This document shows positions 6,817-22,121 of a DNA stretch of 32,000 bases, in pieces; position 1 is the first letter of the stretch, and every line of letters starts with the position of its first letter. Below the pieces are notes generated by a model that saw nothing but the letters and a program-made list of their open reading frames with translations, was not told the DNA's origin and did not search any database. The stretch lies in NCBI RefSeq assembly GCF_014396165.1, contig NZ_CP060715.1:1110001-1142000 (forward strand). Direction: 5' to 3'. The position numbers and the translations under genes were made by a program. Source of the stretch: Erysipelothrix inopinata (lineage in GTDB: Bacteria > Bacillota_I > Bacilli_A > Erysipelotrichales > Erysipelotrichaceae).

Positions 6817-8049
6817 ATGAAACAAAAATTCGAAGCCAAACTAAAACAAAAACAACAACAAACGTTAAGCACTCGGCAAATTCAAATGCTCGATTTCATG
6901 ATGCTAAACCAAAGTCGATTGGATCAATCGATTTTGGAAGCATTTGAAAGTAATCCAACACTTGAAATTGAGGATGGCTATTTTAAAAGTGGAACGTTAG
7001 TATTTGATGATGTTTTAGCTGCATATGTTAAAGGACCTTCATTAAAAGATGACCTCTACATGCAATTGTTGGAACGAAGGGATTTGAATCATGATTTGAT
7101 GAGCTATCTTATTGAATCATTGAATGATCAAGGTCTTCTTCCGACTTCGAATTCTGTTTTAGCACAAGAACTCGATAAATCGGAGTGCGAAATTGAGCGT
7201 CATCGTTTCGCACTTCAACATTTTGATCCCATTGGTATTGGTAGTGAGTCAGTTAAAGAATCTATCATCGTTCAATTGAGAGCATTGAATCATCCTTTAG
7301 CAGAACTTGGAATAAAGATATTGAATAATTTTCTAAGTGTGAACGATTATTCTGAGTCAAAGATAATAGAAACCTATCAGATTGATGAAGAAACACTCAA
7401 TGATGTATTGAATGTTATCCATAAATGTAAACCAACATTTGACTTTGATTCTGACGATTCAAAGAACTTATACCCAGACCTAATCATCAACGTCAATCAT
7501 CAAGAATTGGAATGTACTTCCACACGTGATTATTCAAAAATAAAAATCAACTATGATTACAAACAGGAAGCGAGTGAAGAGATTAAAACTTGGTATCAAG
7601 AGAGTGAAATTTTACTTGAGAAAATTCAGTTTAGAAATCACACGCTTACCAATGTCGTGCAAATTATTCTTGATAGACAAAAAGAATTCTTTATGAATCA
7701 AAAACCGTTGAATATTTTGACACAGTCAGATGTCGCGGAATTGTTAGATATCAATCCATCAACAGTCTCTCGGAGTATTGCCAATAAATCGGTGCTTTTT
7801 AATGGCGATATTTATGAACTTTCTGACTTCTTTGTCAGTGCAACTAAAGGTGGTAGCAGTGCGGACACGATTAAACGCAAGATTTTAAGAATTGTGAAAA
7901 ATGAAACCAAACCGTATTCGGATCAAAAAATATTAGAACTACTACATGATGAAGGAATTAAGGTTGAACGAAGAACAGTTTCTAAATATAGAAAAGAATT
8001 GAATATTCCGTCTTCATCAGAAAGGAGACGTATTAAGAAATGGTATTAA
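6817..8049 (+). CDS. rpoN: RNA polymerase sigma-54 factor
   Basis: Region I Q/L-rich N-terminus (LKQKQQQTLSTRQIQMLDFMMLN...NPTLE). C-terminal HTH (LTQSDVAELLDINPSTVSRSIANK) and RpoN box (ERRTVSKYRKEL). 410 aa. Confidence 0.9.
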   Translation: MKQKFEAKLKQKQQQTLSTRQIQMLDFMMLNQSRLDQSILEAFESNPTLEIEDGYFKSGTLVFDDVLAAYVKGPSLKDDLYMQLLERRDLNHDLMSYLIESLNDQGLLPTSNSVLAQELDKSECEIERHRFALQHFDPIGIGSESVKESIIVQLRALNHPLAELGIKILNNFLSVNDYSESKIIETYQIDEETLNDVLNVIHKCKPTFDFDSDDSKNLYPDLIINVNHQELECTSTRDYSKIKINYDYKQEASEEIKTWYQESEILLEKIQFRNHTLTNVVQIILDRQKEFFMNQKPLNILTQSDVAELLDINPSTVSRSIANKSVLFNGDIYELSDFFVSATKGGSSADTIKRKILRIVKNETKPYSDQKILELLHDEGIKVERRTVSKYRKELNIPSSSERRRIKKWY

Positions 8050-9422
8050 ATCAAATAGGAGTGATCGGACTTGGCGTTATGGGTTCAAATTTAACATATA
8101 ACTTGTCTGATCATGACAATTTCGTATCGGTGTACGATCGAAATAGTAATGCGGTCAATTCGGTATCACATCATAAAAATATTACAGGATATCAAAATTT
8201 ACAAGAATTTGTAGCATCCTTAGAACTCCCAAGAAAAATAATACTGATGGTTAATGCCGGAAGGCCAGTTGATGCAGTGATCTCAGAACTTCAGGAATAT
8301 CTTGATGAAGGAGATATCATTGTCGATGGCGGTAACTCATACTATCGCGATACTTTGCAACGTCAAAATAAGTGTAATGAAAAGAATATCAATTTTGTCG
8401 GAATGGGAATTTCTGGAGGTGCTGAAGGAGCTCGTTACGGAGCAAGTCTCATGCCATCTGGAGATGAGTCATCGATTAGTATTCTTATGCCTTTTTTAGA
8501 AGATATTGCGGCTGTCACAGAAAAGGGTGATAGTTGTGTCGATTATATTGGTAAGGAAGGTTCAGGACATTTTATTAAGATGGTTCACAATGGTATTGAA
8601 TACGCTGATTTGCAAATACTTTGTGATGCCTATGCAATCATGAAGTATGGCTTACGAATGTCAAATACTGAAATATCAGAAGTATTTGAAGGATGGCAAC
8701 AAACAGAGTTACAATCTTATCTTACAAATATTGCATCAATCGTCTTGAAAGAAAAAGATGAAATTACTGGTAAAGACCTCATTGATCTTATTTCTGATAG
8801 AGCAGGAAGCAAGGGTACTGGGAAATGGACCATTCAATATGCTATTGAAGAAAACATCCCTTGTAACACGTTATTCTCAGCTGTAGATATACGTAATATT
8901 TCGCAACGAGATAGAAATACTCATCAAAGTGAAGTTAAAGAATTATCACAAGAATTAAACTTAGAGATACTTAAACAAGCAGTATATGCATCAAGAGTAT
9001 TTGCATATATGCAAGGTTTCTCAATTATGGAGGAAGCATCTTCACAATATAATTGGAATCTTAATTTTGAAAGTATCTCCAAAATTTGGGGAGCAGGATG
9101 CATCATTCAAGGACAATTGATTAATGACATCCATGAAGATTATGAGAACAATTCGATTAGTTCCTTAATGCATTCACCCAACATGCAAACAATTCTAAAC
9201 GATAGGACCAATGCAATGAGAGATACACTCATTTTTTCGATGAGTAAAAATGTATGTTGCCCAGTAATATCAGCTGCATACAGTGATATTATGGCAACGA
9301 ATACACCGAAGTTATCAACGAATCTCCTTCAAGGGATGCGCGATTATTTTGGGGGACATACATACGAAAGAATCGACCTTGAAGGAAATTATCATACCAA
9401 CTGGAATACAGAAAATAGATAA
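8040..9422 (+). CDS. gnd: 6-phosphogluconate dehydrogenase (decarboxylating)
   Basis: N-terminal IGVIGLGVMGSNL Rossmann motif and the 6PGD signature ISDRAGSKGTGKW. It overlaps the rpoN stop by 10 nt. Confidence 0.85.
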   Translation: MVLNQIGVIGLGVMGSNLTYNLSDHDNFVSVYDRNSNAVNSVSHHKNITGYQNLQEFVASLELPRKIILMVNAGRPVDAVISELQEYLDEGDIIVDGGNSYYRDTLQRQNKCNEKNINFVGMGISGGAEGARYGASLMPSGDESSISILMPFLEDIAAVTEKGDSCVDYIGKEGSGHFIKMVHNGIEYADLQILCDAYAIMKYGLRMSNTEISEVFEGWQQTELQSYLTNIASIVLKEKDEITGKDLIDLISDRAGSKGTGKWTIQYAIEENIPCNTLFSAVDIRNISQRDRNTHQSEVKELSQELNLEILKQAVYASRVFAYMQGFSIMEEASSQYNWNLNFESISKIWGAGCIIQGQLINDIHEDYENNSISSLMHSPNMQTILNDRTNAMRDTLIFSMSKNVCCPVISAAYSDIMATNTPKLSTNLLQGMRDYFGGHTYERIDLEGNYHTNWNTENR

Positions 9423-9432
9423 GGAGAAATGA

Positions 9433-10992
9433 ATGAATAGGAAAATAGTTAAAACACAAAAAGGACAGCTTTCTGGTCTTGTAGAATCAGGCGTTGAGAA
9501 GTATTTAGGGATTCCTTTTGCAAAACCACCAGTAGGTGAATTAAGATTTTTACCACCTGTTGAAAATGAAGCATGGGTTGGAGTTCGTGATGCTATCACA
9601 CTACCAAACAGCCCAATGCAACCGATTAAAGAAAATGGCAAACCATCACGTCAATTGACAAGAATCAGTGAAGATTGTCTTTATTTAAATGTATACGCAC
9701 CTGAAAATTCAGAAGGACGTAATTTACCGGTTATGTATTGGATTTATGGTGGTGGCTATACCGTAGGAAGTTCCGCAATGCCTCTTTACGATGGTGAGAA
9801 TTTTGTAAAGAACAATGATGTCATTTTAGTTACTGCAAACTATCGCGTAGGTATCTTTGGATTTATGAGTCATCCTGCTCTTAGCAAACGAGCAGAACAT
9901 CACACGAATGCGGGAGTTGCAGATGCCATTGCTGGTTTAACGTGGGTAAAACATAATATTGAAGCATTTGGTGGAAATCCAAATAATGTCACTGTTTTTG
10001 GACAATCAGCAGGTTCTTCATTGATAAATATATTATTGTTGTCTCCTGTAGCAAAAGGACTATTCCATGCTGCAATTACTCAAAGTGGTTCGCCGTTTAA
10101 TCATGACGAATGGGATATTGATACAGAACAAACTTATGAAAAATGTCGTAAGTATATGGAATCTGTTGGAATTATGAACGAAGAGGACCTTTACAGCGCT
10201 CCTGCAGAACAATTCCTTCAAGATAAAGATAATTACGCTAGAGCAGAGTTCTGCCCGTATGTGGATGGTTACATCCTACCAGACCGACTTGAACAATGTT
10301 TCTTGAAAGGGTTATTCCATGACGTTCCAGTAATGCTTGGATGTACATCTGATGAGGCTTCATCTCTAGTCAACGGAGGCGATGCACACGGAAGTCGTTC
10401 AAAGACTACAAAAGAATCATTTGGTAAAACAGTAGATATAAAATATCCAATCAAAGAGCACAACGAATTCATTTGGGAAAAATATGGTCCCTATGCTGAA
10501 TATGACGCAGGTTATGCACTCTATCGCTTTAGATCCGATAACACTGCAGCGAATATGAGATACTTTGCATCTTGCCTCAAAGACTACAACGAGAGTCCAG
10601 TTTACTACTACATTTTCCAACATGTACCACCTACCCATAATCCATCTTTCCTAGGTGCACATCATGGTTGTGAAGTTAACTATATCTTCCAAAACTTCGA
10701 TGCAGACAAAGAAATCATTGCATACGGAAGTTACGATGAAAAGATTGGAAATGATGTGTCAGCATACTGGACAAACTTTGCACGTAATCATCATCCAAAT
10801 AGTGAATCACTACCACACTGGGAAGAATTCACTCCTGAGAACAATATGATTATGTACTTAGATGGACCTTGCGAATGTAGAGAAATAAAGAACAAAGCAA
10901 TTACAGATACATTCGAAAGATTTCTTGCAGAAAGAACAGAAGCCAACAACCCCGGGTTGATGGTTAAATCAAAGAAAGCAGCAGATTTCTAA
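9433..10992 (+). CDS. Type-B carboxylesterase (para-nitrobenzyl-esterase-like)
   Basis: FGGNPNNVTVFGQSAGS matches the type-B carboxylesterase serine signature. N-terminal GIPFAKPPVGELRF and EDCLYLNVY motifs. AAGGAG RBS. Confidence 0.9.
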   Translation: MNRKIVKTQKGQLSGLVESGVEKYLGIPFAKPPVGELRFLPPVENEAWVGVRDAITLPNSPMQPIKENGKPSRQLTRISEDCLYLNVYAPENSEGRNLPVMYWIYGGGYTVGSSAMPLYDGENFVKNNDVILVTANYRVGIFGFMSHPALSKRAEHHTNAGVADAIAGLTWVKHNIEAFGGNPNNVTVFGQSAGSSLINILLLSPVAKGLFHAAITQSGSPFNHDEWDIDTEQTYEKCRKYMESVGIMNEEDLYSAPAEQFLQDKDNYARAEFCPYVDGYILPDRLEQCFLKGLFHDVPVMLGCTSDEASSLVNGGDAHGSRSKTTKESFGKTVDIKYPIKEHNEFIWEKYGPYAEYDAGYALYRFRSDNTAANMRYFASCLKDYNESPVYYYIFQHVPPTHNPSFLGAHHGCEVNYIFQNFDADKEIIAYGSYDEKIGNDVSAYWTNFARNHHPNSESLPHWEEFTPENNMIMYLDGPCECREIKNKAITDTFERFLAERTEANNPGLMVKSKKAADF

Positions 10993-11007
10993 TAAAATTA
11001 TGAAAAA

Positions 11008-11050
11008 AATAACATTTCTCTTCAAAAATAAGATGAGAAATGTTATTTAA
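11008..11050 (+). terminator. Terminator hairpin after the esterase gene
   Basis: Perfect 13-bp stem AATAACATTTCTC (11008-11020) pairs with GAGAAATGTTATT (11035-11047). The loop is 14 nt and the T tail is weak. Confidence 0.55.
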
Positions 11051-11452
11051 ATTAGTAAATTTGAAGTTTACAATAATTAAAAAATAATAGTGCTCGTTAT
11101 GTAGGTAATTAAATATCCTGCAGTATTTAGAACTAAATAGACAGTGTTAGATATAATCCTCATTGGTTCATACTATAAAAAAATTTAATTATGTCTTGAT
11201 AAAGTGAATACTATAATTATTATAATATGTGATTAAAGAACAATAAATTATCGCGAGGTTAGAGTAAAAAAAATCAAGAAGATTAATTAGATGTTTTAAA
11301 TTTATATATGTGCTAATATGTAAGCATAGAAATTGATTTTTTTTTGCATCAATCAACACTAGTAAAAATAAGAAGTGTGTCTCTAAAATTTGTTTAAGGT
11401 TATCAAGTAATCGACAAATCTATTTTTCTGCTTAATGCATTTGTTTCCAGAA

Positions 11453-11481
11453 TTGATTGGTTATGGATTGCTTTTTATAGT
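11453..11481 (+). promoter_or_regulatory. Sigma-A-type promoter candidate TTGATT-17-TATAGT
   Basis: -35 at 11453-11458 and -10 at 11476-11481, 24 nt upstream of the PHP-ATPase ATG. The call comes from AT-rich sequence, so it is tentative. Confidence 0.4.
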
Positions 11482-11504
11482 TAATTTAAAAAGGAGATAA
11501 TTAT

Positions 11505-13886
11505 ATGTGGAATGCAATAGACTTACATATGCACACATCTGTTGGAGTTACTCGGGATGGTAAAAGTGATACAGTAAATTTCTCGTATTTAAAATTCGTT
11601 CAGGTGCTCTCAGAGTATGAATTGAAACTTTTATCAGTTACAAATCATAATATCATTGATTTTTCTAATTTTTTAGTATTAAATTATTTATCTGATATAT
11701 TAGGTTCAACAATGCTTTTGGGTGTGGAATTTGATACAGTTTTTGCTGATAAAGAGGATCAGCCTTTGCATCTCGTGGCTATATCAGAAAAAGAATTTGA
11801 AGATAATTTTGAAATGTCTAATAACATAAATATTGAGACTCAAAATAAAAAAAATAATATCGGTGAAGTAATATATTCTGCCGAAGAATTGATGTCATTA
11901 GTTAGAAATCATAATTTAGTTATGATACCTCATGGATCTAAATCGAGGGGGATTTTTGAAGACCCTTCTGAGGAAAATATTAAAAGTGCTTTAAAAATTG
12001 TTCGAGAAGGATTTATTAGAGTATTTGATAGTCCATCTAATTGGAAGTTAAGCCAGATTAAATCTTTTATGACGGAGGAAAATTACGCTGATAATATTGA
12101 TGATTTCGGAGGTGTTTTATTCTCAGATGTTCGAGATTGGGATCAATATAGTTCAAAGAATAGAAACTTCTATATGAACGCAGAACCGAGTTTTAAAGGC
12201 CTAATACACTCACTATCGAATCCAGTACATAGATTTTCTACCAAAGATCACATTAACAAAAATAATCACTATATATCCAGAATTGAAATTAAAAAAAGAG
12301 AAGAAGAAAGTACTTCCCCATTGGAACTTACCGAGAATTGTATTAATCTTGATAGGGGGTTTAACTGTATAATTGGTCGATCGGGATCAGGGAAAAGCTT
12401 ATTACTAGAAATAATTAAACAATCTTTAACTGAATCAACCAAAAGTTCTTATGATGTAATTAGCGATTATGAGTTTTCGTTCTATAATGAGAGTGACGAA
12501 AAGCTAGACAAATCCAACATAAATATAGGATTTGGAGAAAAAATTTATGATAAAATTATTCAAGCAAATATGTCTTCTGATAATGAAGAAATGTATAGTA
12601 TTGTAAGATATATCATGCCAGATTTTGTTTCCAAAAGAAATTTTCAGGCGGTGAATGAGGTTTTTGAAAAAAATGTTAATCTATATATAGATACTAAAAA
12701 AAAATACTCTGATAATTCAAAAAAAATCATTGAGGAAATTAATAAATTAAACGGTAACGAACTTAAACTTAGGGACTTGGAAGATATAAGTACTTTTCAA
12801 ATATCACTTCCTGATCCATTTAAACTAACATATACCCAAGAACAACTAAATAACTTTGCAAAATACAGTGAACATTTCGAGAGTTTAAATACAATATTAA
12901 ATATATATAAAGATAATAAAAAAATAAATATTAAGAACAAACTAGACGAAACAAATAAATTATTTAAAACAGTGTATCAAGAAATAACAGAACTACACAA
13001 GTTTGAAACATATGAAATTCGCAAATATGATCTAGTGAAAAAATGTATTAATGATGTTAATGGAATTTCGTCTACTAATGCATTGAGTAAATCAACTTTA
13101 ATAAATTCAATGTCGAGTACGCTCGATAGCATTGTTTCGAGTTTTATTGAACATAAGATAGACGAGTTTAACCTACTATCTATGGATGTAAGTTACAACT
13201 TACAAGGTTCACATCAGGAAACATTGATCAATAAAAACAATCAGATTTTAGTTGTGGAAAAGGTAAAAGAAGAGGATATAAAGCTTGTATCCGAGAGAGA
13301 GAACAAGCTTTTTAAAACATATGGACATAAGACAAAATTGAATGAAAAAAAATATGATTTAACGAGTAACAAAGACACAAAAAACCTACTAAATAAATAC
13401 ATAAAACTTGATATAATGAGAGATTCTTTTAAGATAAATGACCTATTCGACGTTGAAGTTGAAATATTCTTTGATCAAAATAATATTAAAAATTTAAATC
13501 CAGGAGACATTGCTAAAACATATCTAGAGGTTTATTTTGACAATAATATTATTAATTCTAACAACTCAGTAATTTTGTTCGACCAACTTGAAAATGATGT
13601 TGACAAGGATTTTATTAGTACCACGATAAAAGAACAGATCAATAAAACGAAGGGAAAGGTTCAATTTATTGTTGTCACTCATGATCCTATAATTGCTGTA
13701 AATGCGGACCCAACCAATTATATTGAAGCTATTAAAAATGACAAAAATATTGAATATAGAAATTTTAGGCCGGAAAGCTATGTACAAAATGAGCTAATTA
13801 CAATTGCGAATACAGTTGACGGGTCCCGAAATGTAATAAAAAATCGATACGAAATTTATAAAGGAGATAGACAACATGAAAATTGA
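11505..13886 (+). CDS. PHP-family phosphoesterase fused to an ABC/SMC-like (split Walker A/B) ATPase; probable defence protein
   Basis: PHP motifs DLHMHT (aa 6-11), VTNHN, GVEFD, IPHG. Walker A GRSGSGKS (nt 12375-12398), then about 390 aa of K/N/E-rich spacer. Walker B-like VILFDQLE (13569-13592) and VVTHDP (13671-13688). AAAGGAGA RBS. Confidence 0.8.
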   Translation: MWNAIDLHMHTSVGVTRDGKSDTVNFSYLKFVQVLSEYELKLLSVTNHNIIDFSNFLVLNYLSDILGSTMLLGVEFDTVFADKEDQPLHLVAISEKEFEDNFEMSNNINIETQNKKNNIGEVIYSAEELMSLVRNHNLVMIPHGSKSRGIFEDPSEENIKSALKIVREGFIRVFDSPSNWKLSQIKSFMTEENYADNIDDFGGVLFSDVRDWDQYSSKNRNFYMNAEPSFKGLIHSLSNPVHRFSTKDHINKNNHYISRIEIKKREEESTSPLELTENCINLDRGFNCIIGRSGSGKSLLLEIIKQSLTESTKSSYDVISDYEFSFYNESDEKLDKSNINIGFGEKIYDKIIQANMSSDNEEMYSIVRYIMPDFVSKRNFQAVNEVFEKNVNLYIDTKKKYSDNSKKIIEEINKLNGNELKLRDLEDISTFQISLPDPFKLTYTQEQLNNFAKYSEHFESLNTILNIYKDNKKINIKNKLDETNKLFKTVYQEITELHKFETYEIRKYDLVKKCINDVNGISSTNALSKSTLINSMSSTLDSIVSSFIEHKIDEFNLLSMDVSYNLQGSHQETLINKNNQILVVEKVKEEDIKLVSERENKLFKTYGHKTKLNEKKYDLTSNKDTKNLLNKYIKLDIMRDSFKINDLFDVEVEIFFDQNNIKNLNPGDIAKTYLEVYFDNNIINSNNSVILFDQLENDVDKDFISTTIKEQINKTKGKVQFIVVTHDPIIAVNADPTNYIEAIKNDKNIEYRNFRPESYVQNELITIANTVDGSRNVIKNRYEIYKGDRQHEN

Positions 13887-14166
13887 AATTGAAAAGACTG
13901 AAAGTGGTGCACATTTTAAATATTGTGATGAATCAAATTGGAGAAATGTCGGGTATAGCGAAATTAATGAATTTATTGATTATTATTTAGATAATCTCGA
14001 AACAAATGGAGATTGTGAAATTATTGGAGAAGATAATGTTGAAAACTATAAAACTTTATTTTCAAAACTGATTAGTGAAATGAATAGTGAAGACTTCATT
14101 CTTGCATATAAATTGGCTAAAGAACGCAGTAGTGAGGCTGAATCAATACAGGATGAAAGGGATTAA
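13876..14166 (+). CDS. Small acidic hypothetical protein (96 aa), apparently translationally coupled to the PHP-ATPase
   Basis: The ATG lies 11 nt inside the 3' end of the upstream gene, with AAGGAG at 13861-13866. No family was recognised. Confidence 0.6.
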   Translation: MKIEIEKTESGAHFKYCDESNWRNVGYSEINEFIDYYLDNLETNGDCEIIGEDNVENYKTLFSKLISEMNSEDFILAYKLAKERSSEAESIQDERD

Positions 14167-15360
14167 GCTAAATTTAAGTACTTAAAATGTCATCAAATTT
14201 TTGCACATGTAGTTTTAAAGTCGTTTAAATTCTGTGTTGCAAATTGATATTTAATATATCGGATGATATGGTATTTCATTCTAAATTAGCTTTAATTTTC
14301 GAAGATTGAATTAGTATTGTGATAAAGATATCTTTTAATAAGAAGCTGCTAGTTTTTCTCATTATAATTGAACTTATTCTTTGATGTTCAGTAGTCTGTA
14401 TGTATCATTGAAAACAAGTAAGAGTTCAGAAAAATTCGATTGAAATAAGGAGTTACTTTAACCATCGTATATTTATAATAGAGGTGATTAAAATGTTTGA
14501 TTCAAATTATGAAGAGTTTCCGGGTGTATTCTATATCTATGTAGGATATTGGAGAGAATATGTAGTTGATGATCAATCAGGGAAATATATTCCTTATTTT
14601 TTAATCTGGTTTCTTTAGTTTTTCAGGAGAAATAGTCCGGTTTACAACAGTAATTATGAAAATGTAAAATAATTTAGGAGCGATTGCATATTGTTTCTCT
14701 ACCTAGTTTATATTGTATCCAAAGTGAGTAAACGAACTAGCTTCACAAGTGTTGATTTTTGAATGATGTGAGGACAAAGACAAGTGAATCTAAACAATTA
14801 TTGTTGGATGTACACTTGCTACTAATGCTTTAAAGAACTGAACCATATCTTATCCAAAATATACTTTTTTTAGCAAGCCATCATTTCTAGAAACTTGAAA
14901 CGTCTTTTTGACAGATTCATATATACACACAAGAATATTCTCACTAATAATTCAAGGTCAAAATCTATTAACAGGTTCGAGTCACACAACAAAAACTCTA
15001 GGATCGGTGTGAAAGAATACTTCATAATTTCTAGAAATTTCTCAATGTGGTTATCAGCAAGCTTTCCATTATAAGTTTGCTGATAAAAATGTTACAACTA
15101 CATATGTTCCTTTGAAATTATGGTGTTAATCATACATTTTAGCTAATTCGAGTATAGTTGACGGTATAATATAAAAACCCACTTGAAAGAAATCTACATT
15201 TAGCACTATATCGTTTTTAATAAATTATTTCGACTCTATCCCGAAAATTTTTAAAATTTGCAATGATGAAAGAATTGTGAATTTTGAAATTATAAGCTAT
15301 TTTTTGATTAATAAATGATATCATAAAGAAAGAGATAGTATTCAATTCACGATCTTTTTA

Positions 15361-17062
15361 GTGTACAAAATGAATAAGGAGAAAAAGGAAACGAATATGA
15401 ATAGTGATTTTGATAATCTTAAAAATACTTTAAGCAGGGTAGAAGTTCCTATTGATAATGTAGAACATGATAAATTTAGATATAATAAAAATGCAGAAGG
15501 GTTCGCAAAATTTCTTGAAAAATGTGAAATGCCGATAACAGTATCAATTCAAGGAGATTGGGGCTCAGGAAAAACCTCATTTATGAACTTAGTTAGAAAT
15601 AATTTTCTGGACAATAATTCAAAAGAACAAAATGAATTCTATAAATTTGATGCATGGCAATTTTCGGCATTTGGTAGTGAAGAATTTCTTCCGATTTTTT
15701 TGTTAGAAGAAATCGCAGAAAATACAGGTTGTAAGTCAAAACAAGCCACAAGGTTTTTTGAGGAATTAAAAAGTATTTCCATACTAAAATTGGTTGAAAC
15801 TGGTAGTAATTATGGGATCAAGATTGACCCATCAGTGTTTGATTCAAATCATGCCCAAAAGAGAGAAAAACTAATTAATAGTATTAATGAAAAAACTTCA
15901 GGCAGAAGAATTGTTTATTTTATTGATGATTTGGATAGAGTCAAGCCCGAAGTTGCTATAGAAATGTTAGAAGTAATAAAGTCAGTACTCAATCTTAAGA
16001 ATTTTATTTTTGTTGTCGCGATAGATCTTGAGGTGATTAGAAAAGGGTTAGAAAAAAATTTAGTAATAATATGAATGCTGATAAAGCTCAAGCATTTTTT
16101 GATAAAATATCCCAGGTGAATTATGTTATACCTAATCATCAAATTGATATTTCAGATTATTTGCTTGAACTTTTAGATTTCGACTTTGTATATGAAAATG
16201 ATGTAGTTAAAAAAATGGATTATATAATATTTTTCAACAAACTATACAAGATTGTGTTTCTAATAATCCAAGACAACTCAAAAAATTAGTAAACAACTAC
16301 TATTTATATTCGACAATTGTTTTAAATGAGTTACATAAACTAGAAGATAGAGATGAAAAAAATGCTTCTAAACTTTTAATATTTATCGTAGTTGCTCTGA
16401 AAGAACATAGTTATGACTTGTATAAAGAATTCTTAAACCTACCCGCGACTTTTAATATTTATGAAGATGCAGAGGGATTAGATAATTCATTAAAAAATGC
16501 AATCCTCAATCTTGATAGAATAAAACTAAATTATATAAAAGACATCAGTAAGTATAATAGCCTAATTGTAAATATTTCAACTCAAGCACAAGTAGAAGTT
16601 TCCAAAGAAAGGGATACAGAAACGAAATCAGATGATGATAAAATATCAAGATATTCTTACAAAGGAAAGAAATATAACTCTGTACAGCTGAATGCTGAGT
16701 TACGAAATGAGTATCTCAGGACAGTTTCGAGAACTTTCTATAATAATCAAGAGCTAACGGCAGAAGAGAAAAATAAATTTATTGGAGATGGTACAGTAAA
16801 AGGTATAATGTCTTCTACAATCCAACAACTTACGGATAGGGGATTAAGTATTAAAGCAATAAGTAGCATTCAGGGTAATTTAATGATAAAAGAAGGAAAA
16901 AATCCTGATATAGACCAATGGAAAAATTCAGCTAGAATATTCGAATTTCCAATTGGTGAGGAAAAGTTTGTTTATTTTGATACTAATATTTCAATTAGGG
17001 ATGCTTATGTATTATCAATTAGAATGATAGAAGAATCAATGATAGAAGAATCTATGAAGTGA
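15361..17062 (+). pseudogene. KAP-family P-loop NTPase interrupted by two -1 frameshifts
   Basis: Walker A IQGDWGSGKTSF, Walker B VYFIDDLDRV..FVVAIDLEVI, and downstream KAP-like AQAFFDKISQVNYVIP and NNPRQLKKLVNNYYL. The reading frame moves 1 to 3 at the A7 run 16052-16058 and 3 to 2 at the A7 run 16209-16215. Adding one A at each site gives a single ORF of about 555 aa. Confidence 0.75.
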
Positions 17063-17372
17063 TTATTGGAAAACTCATGAAATTGTTATACATTCCTAAC
17101 TTGGGAATATATAATAGCAATTAGGTCCGTAATGCAAATACTTTTGCAGTAACCTTAGATGAAAGTTGTATGCATATGTGCTAAATATTACTGTATAAAT
17201 ATTTTAAGTAATTAATTTGAAAAGACTTTTCTAATTAATATGGTGGGATATAGTTTTCAAAATAATTAGTATTTGAATGAGAAATAAGTTACTCAAATTA
17301 TTTTTGAGTAAAAGTACTTTGAGATATATATTAAAATTTAAGTTTAAAATATAGTAGAAGGAGAATATGACC

Positions 17373-18062
17373 ATGTGGGGTAATGCAAAGATTCAAGATA
17401 GTAATATGTTGGAAGCACAAAGAGAAATGTACACATCAAAGAGGGGAAATAAAATAATATATAATAAGGGAGGAAAGGATAATTTCCAAGTAAGTATTAT
17501 TGAATGTGATACAAATGACGCGTATGCTATGAGAGATGTCGATTATTTTGAAGTGATTCTGAAGTATAGTAATAAATATGAGGTAGAAATTCTATCATTG
17601 ATAAGACAGATGTCCGAATTTATTGACCAAAACGCAGGTGGATTTTATGATAGTTTTATAGGGTTGATATTTGAACCAAATGAACCATTCGATATTAATA
17701 ATCGAAACACGTTCGGGTATAATGACCAGTTACATATTAATAATATTATAAATATAGTTGATACCTACGATGGAATGGAAATTGAAGATCCTGAATCTGA
17801 GCTTGAGGAAGCACTAGTAATAATCTACTTAGCAATGGTTTCTGAATGGTATTATGGATTTAGTTATGGCGGAATTGATAGTGGTAAAAGATCAAAGTGG
17901 CAACATAGAATGAAGATTCTTGGTTTGCATCAAGTAATTAATCGAGATTTAACACCTGAATGTGCTGCAAGATATTCAATTAGATTAGGTGAAGATCAAA
18001 TTTCAGATGCATTAGAAATATATGGAATCTATTCTAAGCCTTTGAAGTTTCCTAAAAAATAG
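17373..18062 (+). CDS. Hypothetical protein (229-231 aa), no recognisable family
   Basis: Long ORF with GAAGGAGA upstream. The second ATG at 17373 has better spacing than 17367. The gene has its own terminator. Confidence 0.55.
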   Translation: MWGNAKIQDSNMLEAQREMYTSKRGNKIIYNKGGKDNFQVSIIECDTNDAYAMRDVDYFEVILKYSNKYEVEILSLIRQMSEFIDQNAGGFYDSFIGLIFEPNEPFDINNRNTFGYNDQLHINNIINIVDTYDGMEIEDPESELEEALVIIYLAMVSEWYYGFSYGGIDSGKRSKWQHRMKILGLHQVINRDLTPECAARYSIRLGEDQISDALEIYGIYSKPLKFPKK

Positions 18063-18193: not shown

Positions 18194-18215
18194 ATTGTGC
18201 ACTTTGATGCACAAT
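18194..18215. promoter_or_regulatory. Palindromic operator candidate ATTGTGCA-N6-TGCACAAT
   Basis: Perfect 8-bp inverted repeat (18194-18201 and 18208-18215), 27 nt upstream of the HTH-methylase ATG. It abuts a TATACT -10-like hexamer at 18220-18225. Confidence 0.5.
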
Positions 18216-18241
18216 ATGTTATACTTATAGACGGTGATAAC

Positions 18242-19312
18242 ATGGAAATACTTGAAGAGTTAGGAAATAGAATAAAAGAAATTAGAGATAAAAAAGGGAT
18301 TTCTCAAACGGTTTTAGCAGAAAGATCGGGAATCGTAAGAGAACAAATATCTAGAATTGAAAATGGGCAAATTAATGCAACAATAGAATCTGTATATAAA
18401 CTTAGTTTAGGTTTAGATGTGGAAATAGCGGAGTTGGTTAGCTTTAGTAATAACAATATATATATAAACACAAAAAAAGAAAATAGAATCAAGCCATTAG
18501 TAAAATGGGCAGGTGGGAAAACTCAATTACTTTCAGAAATAAGGAATCTTTTACCCGCCACTTACAATAATTACTTTGAACCATTCATTGGTGGTGGTGC
18601 ATTATTTTTTAGTATTATGCCAGAAAATGCTGTTATCAACGACTATAATTCAGAATTAGTCGCTGCATATAGGTGTTTTGAAAATATTAATAGCTACTTA
18701 CAACTAATTGATATATTAAAAAAACACGAAGTCAATCATAACGAAGGGTACTATTTAAGTATTAGAGAGTTGGATAGAACAGAAAATTTTGATCTACTGA
18801 GTCAAGAAGAAAAAGCTGCTCGTTTTATTTACTTGAATAAATCATGTTTTAATGGCCTATATAGGGTGAATTCAAAAGGTCAATTTAATGTTCCGTCAGG
18901 GAAAAAAAGTGCCGTTAAAGCATATGACGGAGAAAATTTTCAGAGAATATTTTCTTATTTTGATGAAAATAATATTAAAATATTGAATGAAGATTTTGAA
19001 GTAGCTGTTCAAGATGCAACTTCAGGAGATTTTGTGTATTTTGATCCGCCATATGATAGTTTTGAAGCCTCTGATTCATTCACATCATATTCTAAAAATG
19101 GTTTTGATAGAGATGATCAATTTAGGTTGATGAAATTATTTAGAAATCTAGATAAAAGGGGTGTCAATGTTATGTTATCTAATCATAATACCCCATATAT
19201 CAATGAACTTTACAAAGGATTTAATATTAAAGTAGTCAAGGCTAAAAGAATGATAAACTCCAAAGCAGATGGCCGAGGCTTTGTAGAGGAAGTTATAATT
19301 ACGAATTATTAG
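18242..19312 (+). CDS. XRE-family HTH domain fused to a Dam/DpnM-like N6-adenine (GATC) DNA methyltransferase
   Basis: N-terminal LGNRIKEIRDKKGISQTVLAERSGIVREQISRIENGQ is an XRE-type HTH. It is followed by KPLVKWAGGKTQLL, FEPFIGGGALFF and FVYFDPPY, the D12-class MTase motifs. The ATG at 18242 is preferred over the upstream GTG at 18197. Confidence 0.85.
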   Translation: MEILEELGNRIKEIRDKKGISQTVLAERSGIVREQISRIENGQINATIESVYKLSLGLDVEIAELVSFSNNNIYINTKKENRIKPLVKWAGGKTQLLSEIRNLLPATYNNYFEPFIGGGALFFSIMPENAVINDYNSELVAAYRCFENINSYLQLIDILKKHEVNHNEGYYLSIRELDRTENFDLLSQEEKAARFIYLNKSCFNGLYRVNSKGQFNVPSGKKSAVKAYDGENFQRIFSYFDENNIKILNEDFEVAVQDATSGDFVYFDPPYDSFEASDSFTSYSKNGFDRDDQFRLMKLFRNLDKRGVNVMLSNHNTPYINELYKGFNIKVVKAKRMINSKADGRGFVEEVIITNY

Positions 19313-19319
19313 GAGGACT

Positions 19320-20126
19320 ATGAAAAATATCAATTGTAATAAGAAAAAAATCATGATTGATGAAGATGATTTTGTGTTGATGCATGGTGATTCTTTAAAA
19401 TTGCTAAAAAAAATAGAACAGAATAGTGTTGATATGATTTTTGCAGACCCTCCGTATTTTCTTTCAAACGGCGGTATTACTGTTCAATCAGGAAAAATGG
19501 TTTCAGTAAATAAAGGCGAATGGGATGAAGGAATGTCTCTAGAAGAAAGACATAAATTTAATCGAAAATGGATTCGGATGTGCAAGAATGTATTAAAGGA
19601 TGATGGAACAATATGGATAAGCGGAACAATGCATAATATATATTCAATTGGTATGGCATTAGAATTAGAAGGTTTCAGTATCATCAATAATATTACTTGG
19701 GAAAAATCAAATCCTCCTCCTAATCTTGCGTGCAGGTCATTCACTCACTCAACAGAAACGATTTTATGGGCAAGAAAGCAGCTTACTAGCAAAAAGAAAG
19801 GTAAACATCAATTCAACTATAGTGTTATGAAAAAGATAAATGGTGGAAAACAAATGAAAGATGTTTGGACTTTTTCTACTACTCCTCAACGTGAAAAAAA
19901 ATGTGGTAAGCATCCCACTCAAAAACCAATAGCAGTTTTGGAAAGAATTGTTTTAGCATCAACAAATAAAAATGATGTAGTCTTAGATCCATTCAATGGG
20001 AGCGGAACGACAGGGATTGTATGTTCAATGCTTGGCAGACGTTATATTGGAATTGAACAAGAAAGTGAGTATATTGAACTGACAGTAAATAGACTAAATA
20101 GTTTAAAGGAGAACAAGGATGATTAG
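19320..20126 (+). CDS. Second DNA methyltransferase, DpnA-like (N6/N4 beta-class)
   Basis: IFADPPYF motif IV lies near the N-terminus, with DPFNGSGTTG (motif I) near the C-terminus. 268 aa, in the middle position of a DpnII-type cassette. Confidence 0.85.
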   Translation: MKNINCNKKKIMIDEDDFVLMHGDSLKLLKKIEQNSVDMIFADPPYFLSNGGITVQSGKMVSVNKGEWDEGMSLEERHKFNRKWIRMCKNVLKDDGTIWISGTMHNIYSIGMALELEGFSIINNITWEKSNPPPNLACRSFTHSTETILWARKQLTSKKKGKHQFNYSVMKKINGGKQMKDVWTFSTTPQREKKCGKHPTQKPIAVLERIVLASTNKNDVVLDPFNGSGTTGIVCSMLGRRYIGIEQESEYIELTVNRLNSLKENKDD

Positions 20127-20979
20127 AGATTTCGATGAATGGCTTATGAACTTTAAAAACACAATAGTTGATTGGGATTATTACGTTAATTTTCCCAAAG
20201 TTTATAGCAATGTAGAGAGTATAAAAGTGGAGTTAAATATTTTGAATAGCTTAATCGGATCAAAGGATATTGAAACAGAATTTAAATCACTTGCTACGAA
20301 TTACCCAGAAATTATTAAGGTAATTCCGATTCTAATAGCAAAGAGAGAAAAAGAAATTGCAATCGCAGATAATAAAGAAGAGTTTTTTTTCAACTTTAAT
20401 CAACCTAACTATTCAATTGATGAATATTGTAATTTCATGAGAAAAACTGGACTTTTTAATTTACTTGAGAATCATCTCGTAGGGGATTTGACTGACTACG
20501 TTAAGGGAATAGAAGTGGGATTGGATTCCAATGCACGTAAAAATCGTACCGGGCATCTTATGGAGGATATAGTAGAAAAATTTATAGTAGATGCAGGTTA
20601 TGAAAAAAATAATAATTATTTTAAAGAGTTAAAAAAGACCGAAATAGAAAAAAAATATGATGTTGATCTATCTGCTTTAAGTGGCAAATGGAAAACGAAC
20701 AAGCGATTTGACTTTGTCATTAAATCAGAAAAGACGATATACGTTATTGAAACCAATTACTATAGCGGAGGCGGATCAAAATTAAATGAAACTGCAAGAA
20801 GCTATGAAATGTTAGGAACTCAAGCAAAAAGTATCGAAAACTTTGAATTTATATGGATTACTGATGGTCAAGGGTGGAAATCTGCAAAAAATAATTTAAG
20901 ACAGACTTTGGAAAGCGGTGTAAACGTTCTTTCGTTAAAAGATTTAGAAGAAGGAATTCTCTCTAAAATAATAAAGTGA
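20119..20979 (+). CDS. DpnII/MboI-family type II restriction endonuclease (GATC)
   Basis: 286 aa. N-terminal FDEWL...DWDYYVNFPKVY..VELNILNSLIGSK resembles the DpnII endonuclease family from memory. Third gene after the two methylases, overlapping the preceding gene by 8 nt. Confidence 0.75.
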   Translation: MIRDFDEWLMNFKNTIVDWDYYVNFPKVYSNVESIKVELNILNSLIGSKDIETEFKSLATNYPEIIKVIPILIAKREKEIAIADNKEEFFFNFNQPNYSIDEYCNFMRKTGLFNLLENHLVGDLTDYVKGIEVGLDSNARKNRTGHLMEDIVEKFIVDAGYEKNNNYFKELKKTEIEKKYDVDLSALSGKWKTNKRFDFVIKSEKTIYVIETNYYSGGGSKLNETARSYEMLGTQAKSIENFEFIWITDGQGWKSAKNNLRQTLESGVNVLSLKDLEEGILSKIIK

Positions 20980-20987
20980 GATAAAAT

Positions 20988-21986
20988 ATGACCTCTATAG
21001 TAGTAATAGGAAATGGATTTGACTTGCACCACGGTTTGAAAACCAATTATAGCGATTTTTTCAACGAAAATATAAATAATAAAGATGTTGAGGATTACAA
21101 TAATTTAATACTACAAAGATTTCCTGATATTAGTAATGATTGGACTAAAATAGAAAACAATATATTAAAAATTAGGAAGGTATATTCTACTGCAGAAAGT
21201 CAACTAGTAATGTGCGGAAAAGTTATCGGCTATGAGAATTTCAATGAATTTATAGAATTACAAAAAAAAATAACTAAATTATTTATAGAGTACCTTAAAA
21301 ATAATACACACTTTGATAATATCCAAATGAATCCCAAAATAAATGGTTATCTAATAGCTTCACCGTTAATTGTGAATTTCAATTATACTGATACTGTTGA
21401 AAGTATTTATTGTTTGAATTGCAAGCACCCAAATGGATTCATTGACAATGGTTATGTGATATTTGGTCATATGATGGAGAGTATTCCCCATGATGGCAGC
21501 ATGAATTACGATTTGAATATTAAGCATTATCAACGGATAATAATGAGTTTTTATAATCAAATACGTTTGAAGTACGATGGAGAGACTGTTAAAAACAAAC
21601 TGAGAATTTTTGAAGATGAAGTGATTACAGAATTAGGAATCGATGGACATGGAGCAGGTATTGATGAATCATATAGTCATACAGATCCGGATATTAATTA
21701 CTTTATAAAAAATAATTATGAAAAAATATATCGACCCATTAGTTATTTTTTTAGTGATTTGGAAGCAAAATTGGACATCAACCAACTAGTTGTGATGGGA
21801 CATGGTATAGAAGCAGATACTGATTTTTATGAAATAGTGAATCAAATATATCACATAAAAGAAGTAATTATTTTTTCACACGATAGAATTAAAACAAATA
21901 AAGAAGAAATTCCACTTATAAAGAAAATTTTTAGAACTGTAAAAATCAATATTGAAGATTATACCAACACAATTAACATTAAGTAA
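20988..21986 (+). CDS. AbiH-family abortive infection protein
   Basis: N-terminal IVVIGNGFDLHHGLKTNYSDFF matches the conserved AbiH N-terminal motif. 332 aa, separated from the endonuclease stop by 8 nt. Confidence 0.75.
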   Translation: MTSIVVIGNGFDLHHGLKTNYSDFFNENINNKDVEDYNNLILQRFPDISNDWTKIENNILKIRKVYSTAESQLVMCGKVIGYENFNEFIELQKKITKLFIEYLKNNTHFDNIQMNPKINGYLIASPLIVNFNYTDTVESIYCLNCKHPNGFIDNGYVIFGHMMESIPHDGSMNYDLNIKHYQRIIMSFYNQIRLKYDGETVKNKLRIFEDEVITELGIDGHGAGIDESYSHTDPDINYFIKNNYEKIYRPISYFFSDLEAKLDINQLVVMGHGIEADTDFYEIVNQIYHIKEVIIFSHDRIKTNKEEIPLIKKIFRTVKINIEDYTNTINIK

Positions 21987-22121
21987 TATTTGATTTATTA
22001 TGCTTTTTATAGTAAATAGTATTATTTCAACTAACTTGAACCTAAAATGATTATCACTTTATTTAATAAATAATATCAGCTAATCGTGAAATACATATGG
22101 CATGGGAGAGGAAAATTAAAA

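Follow-up and report, generated by a model that had tools for sequence, protein, structure and literature searches.

The window analysed here, a stretch of 32,000 nucleotides from Erysipelothrix inopinata, contains two open reading frames on the forward strand that encode proteins of 793 and 96 residues and overlap by 11 nt (ATGAAAATTGA). A check of the open reading frames recovered both of them, together with their overlap, as they had been described in a first-pass annotation of the sequence. That annotation had the feature begin at position 11453, which proved to be the first base of a promoter-like site and not the start of a reading frame, the large gene opening with the ATG at 11505 (Table 1). 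Promoter-like matches are not enriched in this AT-rich region (36 found versus 31.5 expected from shuffles), and the site can hence be regarded only as a candidate promoter. The AAGGAG ribosome binding site previously attributed to the small gene is present within conserved C-terminal codons of the large gene (..EIYKGD/E.., reading ...YKGD in the window), and GGAG-type sites occur at the equivalent place before the small ORF in other loci.

Table 1. Features of the two-gene locus, with positions in the 32,000-nucleotide window.
Feature	Position	Strand	Basis
Candidate promoter-like site, TTGATT-17 nt-TATAGT, upstream of the operon	11453..11481	+	weak evidence
RBS of the large gene, AAGGAG, 8 nt before the ATG at 11505	11491..11496	+	read from sequence
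Large gene, 793 aa, predicted PHP phosphoesterase fused to a RecN/SMC/Rad50-like ABC ATPase	11505..13886	+	motifs, AlphaFold2, Foldseek
Predicted PHP domain, residues ~1-250	11505..12254	+	invariant residues, family PF02811 matches, Foldseek, TrlF/PDC-M49A profiles
Walker A / P-loop GRSGSGKS, residues 291-298	12375..12398	+	G291, S293, G294, G296 and K297 invariant
Predicted helical arm, residues 378-559 (helices 378-424, 445-465, 472-522, 524-559)	12636..13181	+	AlphaFold2 secondary structure
Signature-motif-like LNPGDIAK, residues 664-671	13494..13517	+	N665, P666, G667, I669 and K671 invariant
Walker B VILFDQLE, residues 689-696	13569..13592	+	D693 followed by invariant Q694; E696 nearly invariant
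H-loop region VVTHDP, residues 723-728	13671..13688	+	T725, H726 and P728 invariant; D727 nearly so
RBS of the small gene, AAGGAG, inside C-terminal codons of the large gene	13861..13866	+	read from sequence
Small partner gene, 96 aa, pI 4.29, net charge -14	13876..14166	+	annotated hypothetical protein H9L01_05395

The GC content lies between 0.26 and 0.32 over positions 11-23 kb of the window, versus 0.33-0.39 in the flanks, and the same low-GC region also harbours a KAP NTPase, a DpnII-type restriction-modification (R-M) system and AbiH. Both the GC profile and gene identification hence substantiate the AT-rich island that had been proposed from the sequence. Neither a tRNA nor an Rfam family was detected in searches for island borders and RNA elements, and none of the flanking repeats was convincing. 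The locus is best explained as a two-gene operon that forms a self-contained cassette of a chromosomal defence island.

The large protein matches, at 100% identity, an Erysipelothrix inopinata protein that carries the annotation 'AAA family ATPase', and its AlphaFold2 model has a pLDDT of 84.2. The N-terminal region presents the motifs DLHMHT (residues 6-11), VTNHN (45-49), GVEFD (73-77) and IPHG (141-144). In an alignment of 43 homologues with 34-53% identity, residues D6, H8, H10, H48, E75, D77, H89, H143, D208 and H235, which are of the PHP metal-ligand type, were invariant. The Pfam PHP profile (PF02811) did not match the window protein even at E-values up to 1, and the PHP domain by itself found no match in a sequence search of PDB. 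A profile search matched the PHP phosphoesterase 9etk_A. The assignment of a PHP domain rests on the PF02811 matches of 9 of the 43 family members (best E 1.8e-6), on the invariant ligand-type residues, on Foldseek matches of the model to the PHP structures 3e0f and 3o0f (E 1e-4 to 2e-4 over ~270 columns, 268 for 3e0f) and on N-terminal matches to the TrlF and PDC-M49A profiles, which begin at residues 2-5. Sequence and model hence concur in indicating PHP-type metal-ligand motifs and a PHP barrel fold.

The remainder of the protein showed features of an ABC-type ATPase. Pfam profiles AAA_23 (30.8 bits) and AAA_21 (29.3 bits) both scored above the gathering cut-off of 27, and Foldseek matched the model to RecN, SMC, Rad50, RecF, PtuA, AriA and JetC with E-values from about 1e-8 to 1e-4, the top fold matches being RecN (4ad8, E 7.5e-9) and Rad50 complexes (9q9h, 7yzp and 5dny). 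In the model, the LNPGDIAK motif lies at the start of a helix (residues 666-683) ahead of the Walker B strand (689-693). An arm of ~180 residues splits the ATPase head and is consistent, as modelled, with a short antiparallel coiled coil; the best explanation of this half is a head interrupted by a beta-domain and a short coiled coil. Given the Walker A, signature-like motif, Walker B Asp, H-loop His and predicted coiled-coil insertion, the protein can be assigned, from its sequence and model, to the ABC ATPases of the SMC-RecN-Rad50 type. The fusion of a PHP domain to a split ABC/SMC-type ATPase with a helical arm, as first proposed, was thus upheld by Pfam, invariant columns, the AlphaFold2 model and Foldseek, and the positions given for the PHP motifs, Walker A, VILFDQLE and VVTHDP agree with the translation. 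The description of VILFDQLE as Walker B-like stood as to its position. It did not extend to a catalytic Glu, the Asp being followed by a Gln (D693-Q694) that takes its place in 43/43 homologues and in all related clades.

The 96-aa protein is predicted to fold into a beta-hairpin (residues 2-16), a helix (27-39), a strand (48-51), two further helices (53-69 and 72-95) and an acidic tail; the pLDDT of the model is 88.9, with low confidence in the tail. It did not match any family in Pfam, NCBIfam or PADLOC or any fold in PDB or BFVD. Family and fold searches detected no HTH, RHH or AbrB-type domain and no antitoxin fold, structure searches did not find any resemblance to known DNA mimics, and the literature and databases searched contain no description of this protein. 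PADLOC models likewise gave no consistent match to 34 small partners from five clades. A sequence search with the 96-aa protein alone found only itself, and relatives were identified only once a positional alignment had been built from the genes lying behind large homologues. The profile search with this alignment returned 53 stand-alone relatives, and pairwise homology among small proteins was detected at E 2e-4. No fusions of the two proteins were found when the small-protein HMM was run against the collected large proteins of more than 300 aa. We also considered whether the small protein might be a detached domain of a longer Ppl or TrlF protein; this was ruled out, as the Ppl model runs no further than the C-terminus of the large protein, and comparisons of the small protein with two TrlF proteins, by BLASTP and by hhalign of its profile, were negative. 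The acidity of the small protein is only moderate for a protein of AT-rich Bacillota.

An overlapping small ORF was present behind the large gene in each of the 18 lineages examined whose large protein measures 766-855 aa, comprising Bacillota, a Mycoplasmatales metagenome-assembled genome, Acholeplasmataceae, Riflebacteria and a probable Bacteroidota contig. The overlap ranged from 4 to 14 nt, counted from the chosen start codon, and every small protein for which a pI was computed was acidic (pI 4.1-5.1). In TrlF and Spaf_1101 genes (873-948 aa), a small overlapping downstream ORF was found in none of six. Because the same overlapping small ORF follows 18/18 related large genes, the pairing is confirmed to be far beyond chance. 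The small gene evolves under purifying selection (dN/dS 0.18-0.54), and the two genes co-diverge (Mantel r 0.68, p 2e-4), a result that simple linkage would also give. Mean identity was lower for the small than for the large protein (0.31 vs 0.39, and 0.32 vs 0.43 in the close clade), and the small protein is not recognisable by sequence between clades. The survey of co-occurrence suggested by the first-pass annotation hence found the small ORF next to ATPase homologues throughout, and its reading of this ORF as a real, conserved and translationally coupled partner draws further support from pairwise homology, profile relatives, co-divergence and dN/dS below 1. The small gene is best explained as an obligate, translationally coupled companion of the superfamily branch with large proteins of 766-855 aa.

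A genome scan with a single protein as query found nothing, and an alignment-based scan of species-representative genomes identified 8 loci, mostly in metagenome bins. In relatives of the cassette the neighbouring genes encode a FokI R-M system with AIPR and RloB, SLFN-type helicases, ThsB-TIR and AbiTii, type I and MmeI-type R-M systems and ICE proteins. One copy of the cassette lies between PglX-like and PglZ genes, some adjoin resolvases and ICE/T4SS genes, and one is located within a dTDP-rhamnose operon. The defence-island context claimed for the window thus extends to its relatives, with variable flanking genes of defence or mobile-element type that are not conserved between loci. None of 50,697 phage genomes matched, and IMG/VR contained one weak partial match. 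Among plasmids, the search recovered distant relatives of the TrlF/Spaf_1101 type and no member of the close family. The TrlF relatives lie overwhelmingly on conjugative plasmids, adjoining Fst, CcdAB and VapBC modules.

Comparison with curated families indicated that the large protein is, by sequence, a distant and shorter relative of Ppl, TrlF and Spaf_1101. Its scores against the NCBIfam cut-offs were 34 of 1000 bits for Ppl, 111 of 350 for TrlF and 38 of 475 for Spaf_1101 (NF045781). The relation to the Ppl type that had been put forward, with membership left unconfirmed, is hence a distant one, falling short of the full-length match at 1000 bits that defines this family. Ppl is said to have been presented by Gao et al. 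in 2020 as a single-gene anti-phage protein. Later papers likewise describe it as single-gene (PMC11482910, PMC12904381), protecting against T7 and countered by Bas63 gp130 (PMC11482910). The E. coli protein is a single-stranded DNA 3'-5' exonuclease that is inhibited by NTPs bound to both its PHP and NTPase domains and activated by 3'-OH ends (review PMC12904381). Like Ppl, the window protein combines an N-terminal PHP domain and a C-terminal ABC-type NTPase in one chain, has a homologous C-terminal ATPase lobe (residues 686-783, corresponding to model positions 784-890) and belongs to a family found in defence contexts. Unlike Ppl, it is ~100 residues shorter and aligns with the model only over its last ~100 residues (residues 686-752 at 34.0 bits with NF042955; 687-783 at 31.8 bits with PADLOC PDLC02208), and its clade bears the coupled small partner in all 18 lineages. 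The Ppl model matched 37 of the 43 family members, and a staphylococcal TrlF aligned with the Ppl model end to end.

The best-scoring named family was TrlF (NF045780; 110.8 bits, E 8e-32), with residues 2-626 aligned to model positions 5-653; membership would require at least 350 bits and an alignment over the full length of the 944-position model. BLASTP aligned only residues 2-304 and 617-740 with a staphylococcal TrlF, at 25-27% identity, and the PHP domain, Walker A and C-terminal lobe come in the same order in both proteins. TrlF and Spaf_1101 also share with the window protein a Walker B of the form D-Q-P/I-E and a similar C-terminal ending (..EGG/DGS..R..Y). This Walker B reads VILFDQLEND in the window and IIDQPEDN in TrlF, Spaf_1101 and other clades, in keeping with an hhhDQPED pattern, and D-Q-P-E-D is common to TrlF, Spaf_1101 and every partner-bearing clade. 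In contrast, TrlF and Spaf_1101 are longer by ~150 residues in their middle region and occur mostly on plasmids (675 plasmid records), and the overlapping small gene follows none of their six genes examined. Among PADLOC models, the best match of the window protein was component A of PDC-M49 (37.1 bits), which was also matched by 25 of the 43 family members; the alignment (residues 5-313 of the 674-position model) takes in the PHP domain and Walker A, but involves only the N-terminal part of that model, and the small partners did not match any PDC-M49 model. Literature searches on TrlF, PDC-M49 and defence pairs of PHP and ABC ATPase proteins returned nothing relevant, and two surveys of defence systems in lactic acid bacteria contain no PHP system.

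As in Mre11-Rad50/SbcCD and RecN, its top structural matches, the window protein appears to have an ABC ATPase head split by a coiled coil, associated with a nuclease. It departs from these proteins in that the putative nuclease is a PHP domain fused in cis, instead of the calcineurin-like fold of Mre11, and in that no zinc hook is evident and no Cys is conserved in the arm, and also in its very short predicted coiled coil (~50-residue helices), the replacement of the catalytic Glu by Gln and its island-gene distribution. PARIS (AriA-AriB), Septu/retron I-A (PtuA-PtuB) and Gabija (GajA-GajB) have a related ATPase head, to judge from the PtuA, AriA and GajA model matches, and in them an ATPase scaffold holds back a nuclease until a phage cue. 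Their nuclease, however, is a separate Toprim or HNH protein or a fused Toprim domain, whereas here it would be a fused PHP domain, and they have no counterpart of the non-enzymatic second gene of ~95 aa.

The reading to which we give slightly better than even chances is that of a two-gene, Ppl-like defence cassette, made up of a PHP nuclease-ATPase clamp and a coupled small partner that gates the nuclease. The PHP domain would probably be a DNA exonuclease effector, with activity and polarity assigned by analogy with E. coli Ppl; since the scores to named families are far below the curated cut-offs, a function carried over from Ppl may not hold. The large protein would dimerise via its ATP-bound heads. 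Nucleotide binding would probably operate a slow switch or a nucleotide-level sensor and not a motor, given the Gln that replaces the catalytic Glu after the Walker B Asp. E696 might act as a substitute catalytic base, which makes the idea of a non-hydrolysing sensor uncertain. The small partner, made at ~1:1, would bind this putative complex and gate the PHP nuclease in an inhibitory or sensing role, most likely as a lid of acidic, DNA-mimic-like character that prevents the enzyme from attacking host DNA. A possible analogue of such a lid is found in retron I-A, where the complex is restrained by msDNA, likewise an acidic polymer. Infection would release the gate by lowering the NTP pool, by giving rise to free 3' DNA ends or by way of a phage factor that targets the partner, whereupon DNA would be degraded 3' to 5'. 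The defence phenotype itself is suggested by genomic context and distant homology. A more far-reaching version, which we consider possible but doubtful, would make the ~95-aa protein a new class of trans-acting guard for Ppl-like nuclease-ATPases, a host-encoded lid or decoy that mimics nucleic acid and also serves as the infection sensor; a phage factor or DNA ends would strip, modify or out-compete it. In that case the 766-855-aa clades would constitute a distinct, phylum-spanning two-component system, mechanistically separate from Ppl and TrlF.

The same proteins and defence role could also accommodate a small protein that acts as a positive subunit, either a sensor or specificity adaptor that evolves fast, or a clip akin to a kleisin or the Mre11 HLH that sits on the neck of the coiled coil. 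Such a subunit would detect a phage component or a DNA structure, and the nuclease-ATPase would depend on it for activation. The strict translational coupling suggests 1:1 assembly and not antidote excess, the faster divergence of the partner, to the point of being unrecognisable between clades, is as expected of a phage-facing surface, and small accessory subunits are common in SMC-like defence ATPases, such as LmuC in Lamassu and JetA/B in Wadjet. Partner-less sister families persist on hundreds of plasmids, which implies that the enzyme is self-restrained and needs no antitoxin. However, in the searches the small protein resembled no kleisin, KITE protein, Mre11 or sensor domain, and over the whole gene dN/dS stays below 1, with no hint of positive selection; we consider a positive subunit possible but doubtful.

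Less probable still, and in our view unlikely, is a module for addiction and stabilisation, or for competition with plasmids and other elements instead of phages, in which the nuclease-ATPase is a toxin, the labile acidic protein its antitoxin and the main role its own maintenance on islands and mobile elements. The mobility and variable contexts of the cassette, including the resolvases, ICE/T4SS genes and dTDP-rhamnose operon, fit this account, as do the toxin-antitoxin modules beside plasmid-borne TrlF relatives and the low-confidence tail of a small acidic protein, a trait of many antitoxins. Against it, the putative antitoxin is encoded downstream and lacks a DNA-binding domain or antitoxin fold, most neighbours are defence genes, the plasmid relatives are all distant, and the nearest tested relative, Ppl, is anti-phage (PMC11482910). 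Moreover, TrlF, Spaf_1101 and Ppl occur without a partner, which indicates that such enzymes do not intrinsically need an antidote. A housekeeping or accessory DNA-repair enzyme, that is, a single-chain analogue of SbcCD/Mre11-Rad50 or RecN that processes DNA ends, the PHP nuclease standing in for Mre11 and the small protein serving as accessory factor, would share the logic of a nuclease plus a Rad50-like clamp and would suit the best fold matches (RecN, SMC and Rad50 heads) and the 3'-5' exonuclease activity of PHP domains in family X polymerases (bioRxiv 10.1101/2025.09.30.679545). It appears very improbable in view of the sporadic distribution (8 loci), lack of conserved synteny, low-GC island location, missing catalytic Glu and R-M, Abi, TIR and BREX-type neighbours. 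The first-pass annotation had named an end-to-end match to a housekeeping family as an argument against a defence module, and no such match was found.

Ppl-type PHP-ATPase proteins have been treated as single-gene defences whose regulation is only starting to be described. The cassette analysed here points to a whole branch of their superfamily, spanning several phyla, that is an obligate gene pair. The second protein of the pair belongs to no known fold or family and escapes the annotation and defence-finder models now in use. This small, predicted well-folded protein may be a new regulatory or decoy module. The partner-bearing (766-855 aa) and partner-less (873-948 aa) proteins provide a natural comparison for how the nuclease spares host DNA and what it senses. 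Loci of this kind could be annotated by a two-gene signature, in which a PHP-ABC ATPase carrying the Walker B motif DQxE(D/N) overlaps a downstream acidic ORF of 85-112 aa.

The pair proposed by the first-pass annotation, from the sequence alone, as a candidate two-gene defence module (11453-14166) consists of two ORFs on the same strand (+) that share 11 nt of overlap. The start of that span does not correspond to an ORF start, which lies at the ATG at 11505, but is the first base of a promoter-like match; this match stands as a candidate, and such matches are not enriched in the AT-rich DNA here. The motifs placed in the large protein were all recovered at their positions, as was the AAGGAG assigned to the small ORF, which lies inside the coding sequence of the large ORF. 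Each protein has an Erysipelothrix inopinata entry of 100% identity, annotated 'AAA family ATPase' for the large protein and hypothetical protein H9L01_05395 for the small one.

Features of the two-gene pair and of the DNA that follows it
Feature	Position	Strand	Remarks
Promoter-like TTGATT-17-TATAGT	first base 11453	+	candidate
AAGGAG of large ORF	11491-11496	+	upstream of the ATG
Large gene	11505..13886	+	ORF, 793 aa
AAGGAG of small ORF	13861-13866	+	within final codons of large ORF
Small gene	13876..14166	+	ORF, 96 aa
KAP-family NTPase (PifA/QatA/PDC-S20-like), ORF 1	15361-16074		237 aa
KAP-family NTPase, ORF 2	16071-16289		72 aa
KAP-family NTPase, ORF 3	16418-17062		214 aa
DUF7004 protein	17367-18062		231 aa
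Methyltransferase 1	18197-19312		N-terminal HTH_3 (C-protein-like) fused to Dam-like D12 methylase
N6_N4 methylase	19320-20126		second methyltransferase of DpnII-type R-M
DpnII endonuclease	20119-20976		after N6_N4 methylase
AbiH	20988-21986		downstream of DpnII endonuclease
261-aa protein	22086-22871		no Pfam or PADLOC match

The sole Pfam matches above cut-off for the large protein were AAA_23 (30.8 bits) and AAA_21 (29.3 bits); its own sequence did not match Pfam PHP, a model matched by 9 of 43 aligned homologues. About 110 near-full-length homologues of approximately 790 aa were identified (34-53% identity), nearly all of them metagenomic. The alignment of 43 homologues revealed that D6, H8, H10, H48, E75, D77, H89, H143, D208 and H235 are invariant, as would be expected for PHP metal ligands, and that the Walker A motif (G291-K297), a signature-like N665-P666-G667, D693-Q694 and H726 are likewise invariant. 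The AlphaFold2 model (pLDDT 84.2) comprises an alpha/beta domain (1-245), the N-lobe of an ABC head (255-370), long helices (378-424, 445-465, 472-522 and 524-559), a beta-domain (571-656) and the C-lobe. Foldseek matched this model to the heads of RecN, SMC, cohesin/condensin, Rad50, RecF, retron-IA PtuA, AriA and JetC (E 7.5e-9 to 1e-4), and, at E about 1e-4, to a PHP phosphoesterase (3e0f/3o0f). Searching the PDB by sequence and by fold yielded nothing Ppl-like. Taken together, the Pfam matches, invariant residues, model and Foldseek matches identify the large protein as a fusion of a PHP phosphoesterase and an ABC ATPase of the RecN/Rad50 kind, the latter bearing a short coiled-coil arm; in function it resembles a single-chain nuclease-plus-clamp. 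All clades examined share a 'DQPED/DQxEN' Walker B, with a conserved Gln where a catalytic Glu would canonically stand. A Gln following the Walker B Asp ('LIDQIELHL'), as in the PHP-ATPase superfamily, is also seen in the deposited sequences of retron I-A PtuA (PDB 9nnk, 9nnb), where it is either natural or an engineered E-to-Q mutation.

The enzyme type is already known, and corresponds to the Ppl/TrlF superfamily. Against NCBIfam, the large protein scored 110.8 bits for TrlF (cut-off 350), 38 for Spaf_1101 (475) and 34 for Ppl (1000), and against PADLOC it scored 37 bits for PDC-M49A, component A of a PADLOC candidate system (residues 5-313), and 31.8 bits for Ppl (C-terminus only). Among the 43 family members, 37 match the Ppl model and 25 match PDC-M49A. 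Because the alignment of a staphylococcal TrlF to the Ppl model runs from end to end, TrlF and Ppl are judged to be collinear sister families. The large protein belongs to the same superfamily as Ppl, TrlF and Spaf_1101, and is a member of no named family. A full-library profile search returned 120 representatives (50%-identity clusters) at E <=1e-30 and 1,125 at E <=1e-10, with length classes of ~790-803, ~815-848, ~750-810 and ~926-949 aa. Weak tblastn matches (E up to 1) were also obtained in 675 plasmid records, mainly conjugative Enterobacteriaceae plasmids, and most of the records listed give the matched gene the annotation TrlF family ATPase; at four plasmid loci (L024, L025, L029 and L031) it adjoins toxin-antitoxin genes (Fst, CcdAB or VapBC) or restriction genes. 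A literature search for TrlF found no paper.

At every related locus with readable downstream DNA, an ORF of ~85-112 aa overlaps the end of the large gene by 4-14 nt, measured from the start codon that fits the family N-terminus, with a GGAG-type site upstream in most cases. This overlapping ORF was present behind the related large gene in 18 of 18 lineages. These comprise the close clade (the window and relatives' loci L001-3, L004, L005, L007-L010, L012/13, L014-16 and L017/18), a ~830-aa clade (L019-L023) and clades of 766 (L026), 779 (L036), 795 (L027/28) and 855 aa (L033/34). The lineages are labelled Bacilli, Clostridia, Acholeplasmataceae, Mycoplasmatales and Riflebacteria, among others, and on one partner-bearing contig lies a TonB-receptor gene, as is typical of Bacteroidota. 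Genes of the TrlF/Spaf_1101 type (873-948 aa) presented an overlapping small ORF in none of six cases. In a Mycoplasmatales MAG (L021, 6001-8849), the translation under table 11 differs from the database protein, presumably because TGA encodes Trp (code 4), and its small protein measures 112 aa in the database versus 93 aa in the present reading, probably reflecting the same code issue.

Searched alone, the small protein sequence found only itself. Within the closer clades, the small proteins are homologous (28% pairwise identity, E 2e-4), and a profile search identified 53 stand-alone proteins of ~90-105 aa, without Pfam domain or fusion. Between distant clades sequence similarity is lost, but the small proteins remain alike in size and position, in being acidic (pI 4.1-5.1) and in an N-terminus that opens with alternating hydrophobic residues. 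The small gene shows dN/dS of 0.18-0.54, and its product diverges faster than the large protein, with correlated distances (Mantel test, r 0.68, p 2e-4; r 0.89 in the close clade). Its model (pLDDT 88.9) displays a beta-hairpin (2-16), a helix (27-39), a strand (48-51) and two further helices (53-69 and 72-95), with no significant match in PDB or BFVD and none in Pfam, NCBIfam or PADLOC. The possibility that it represents a detached domain was rejected, with no match to any part of TrlF. From its pairing, homology, selection, model and absent matches, the small protein is therefore a genuine, conserved partner with an orphan fold.

In the window, the pair stands at the start of a block of low GC (0.26-0.32 over 11-23 kb versus 0.33-0.39 in the flanks), which is set between genes for a carboxylesterase and a PTS EIIBC and contains an apparently fragmented KAP NTPase, a DUF7004 protein, AbiH and a DpnII-type R-M system (18197-20979) that has two methylases. 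Of the three ORFs into which the KAP NTPase appears to be broken, only the first matches the KAP_NTPase model (positions 1-203 of 293); this defence gene has probably been frameshifted or is decaying. The ~1.2 kb after the small gene (14167-15360) contain no ORF of at least 60 aa, tRNA, Rfam family or terminator-like site. The ORF of the 261-aa protein is overlapped by an antisense 188-aa ORF (22076-22642).

In relatives the flanks differ at each locus, with many defence genes and mobile-element genes among them. Individual relatives neighbour FokI R-M, AIPR and RloB; SLFN/AlbA and resolvases; an ICE coupling protein/Toprim and a methylase; AAA_21-RloB and type I R-M; or MmeI-type R-M. At L017 and L018, next to ThsB-TIR and AbiTii, the cassette is inserted in a dTDP-rhamnose operon, and at L033 (3001-5840) and L034 a relative of 855 aa, together with its 91-aa partner, lies between a 1188-aa PglX-like (MmeI_Mtase/Eco57I) gene and PglZ, nested in a BREX-type locus. 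The close-clade locus L001 neighbours DUF4145 and an SLFN-type helicase; a PLD-helicase is also seen among relatives. No homologue was found in 50,697 phage genomes. Such a context is what marks a mobile defence cassette of two genes, and not a housekeeping repair gene. Among the individual loci, the L017 cassette (7374-11762), like that of L018, lies between dTDP-sugar isomerase and epimerase/dehydratase genes of the dTDP-rhamnose/polysaccharide operon, with gaps of 10-70 nt. At L001 (5522-10674), a 629-aa SLFN-g3-type helicase gene overlaps the large-gene start by 8 nt, with the DUF4145 gene upstream; this may constitute a larger four-gene operon, an arrangement absent from other lineages. 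Directly downstream of the Riflebacteria cassette (L007, 8802-10130), a 442-aa ABC/AAA_21-like ATPase with a canonical Walker B ('IFDEPDNHLHP') is probably a separate defence gene.

The one-gene Ppl system, which has ATPase and PHP domains, impairs T7, and Bas63 gp130 counteracts it (PMC11482910). A 2026 review describes the E. coli protein as an exonuclease that acts 3'-5' on ssDNA; according to it, NTPs bound at both domains inhibit the enzyme, which becomes active at 3'-OH ends once nucleotide pools drop (PMC12904381). By analogy, the enzyme in the window is proposed to be a nucleotide-gated DNA-end exonuclease. Several points have direct support: the PHP active site of the large protein looks intact, its ABC head can bind nucleotide but has no canonical catalytic Glu, its coiled-coil arm is short, and an acidic partner is coupled to it. 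A binding switch or sensor, more than a motor, would suit the conserved D-Q Walker B. The partner would be a 1:1 regulatory subunit, its most likely, putative role being that of an acidic lid keeping the nuclease off DNA until infection. Alternatively, it could be a positive sensor or adaptor, or a toxin-antitoxin-like antidote; against an obligatory antidote stands the existence of sister families without partner.

The obligate pairing of large and small proteins is absent from Pfam, NCBIfam and PADLOC v2, and no paper describing the pair was found. The new element would be this obligate, phylum-spanning association of a PHP-ATPase with an orphan small protein, and the pair is directly testable.
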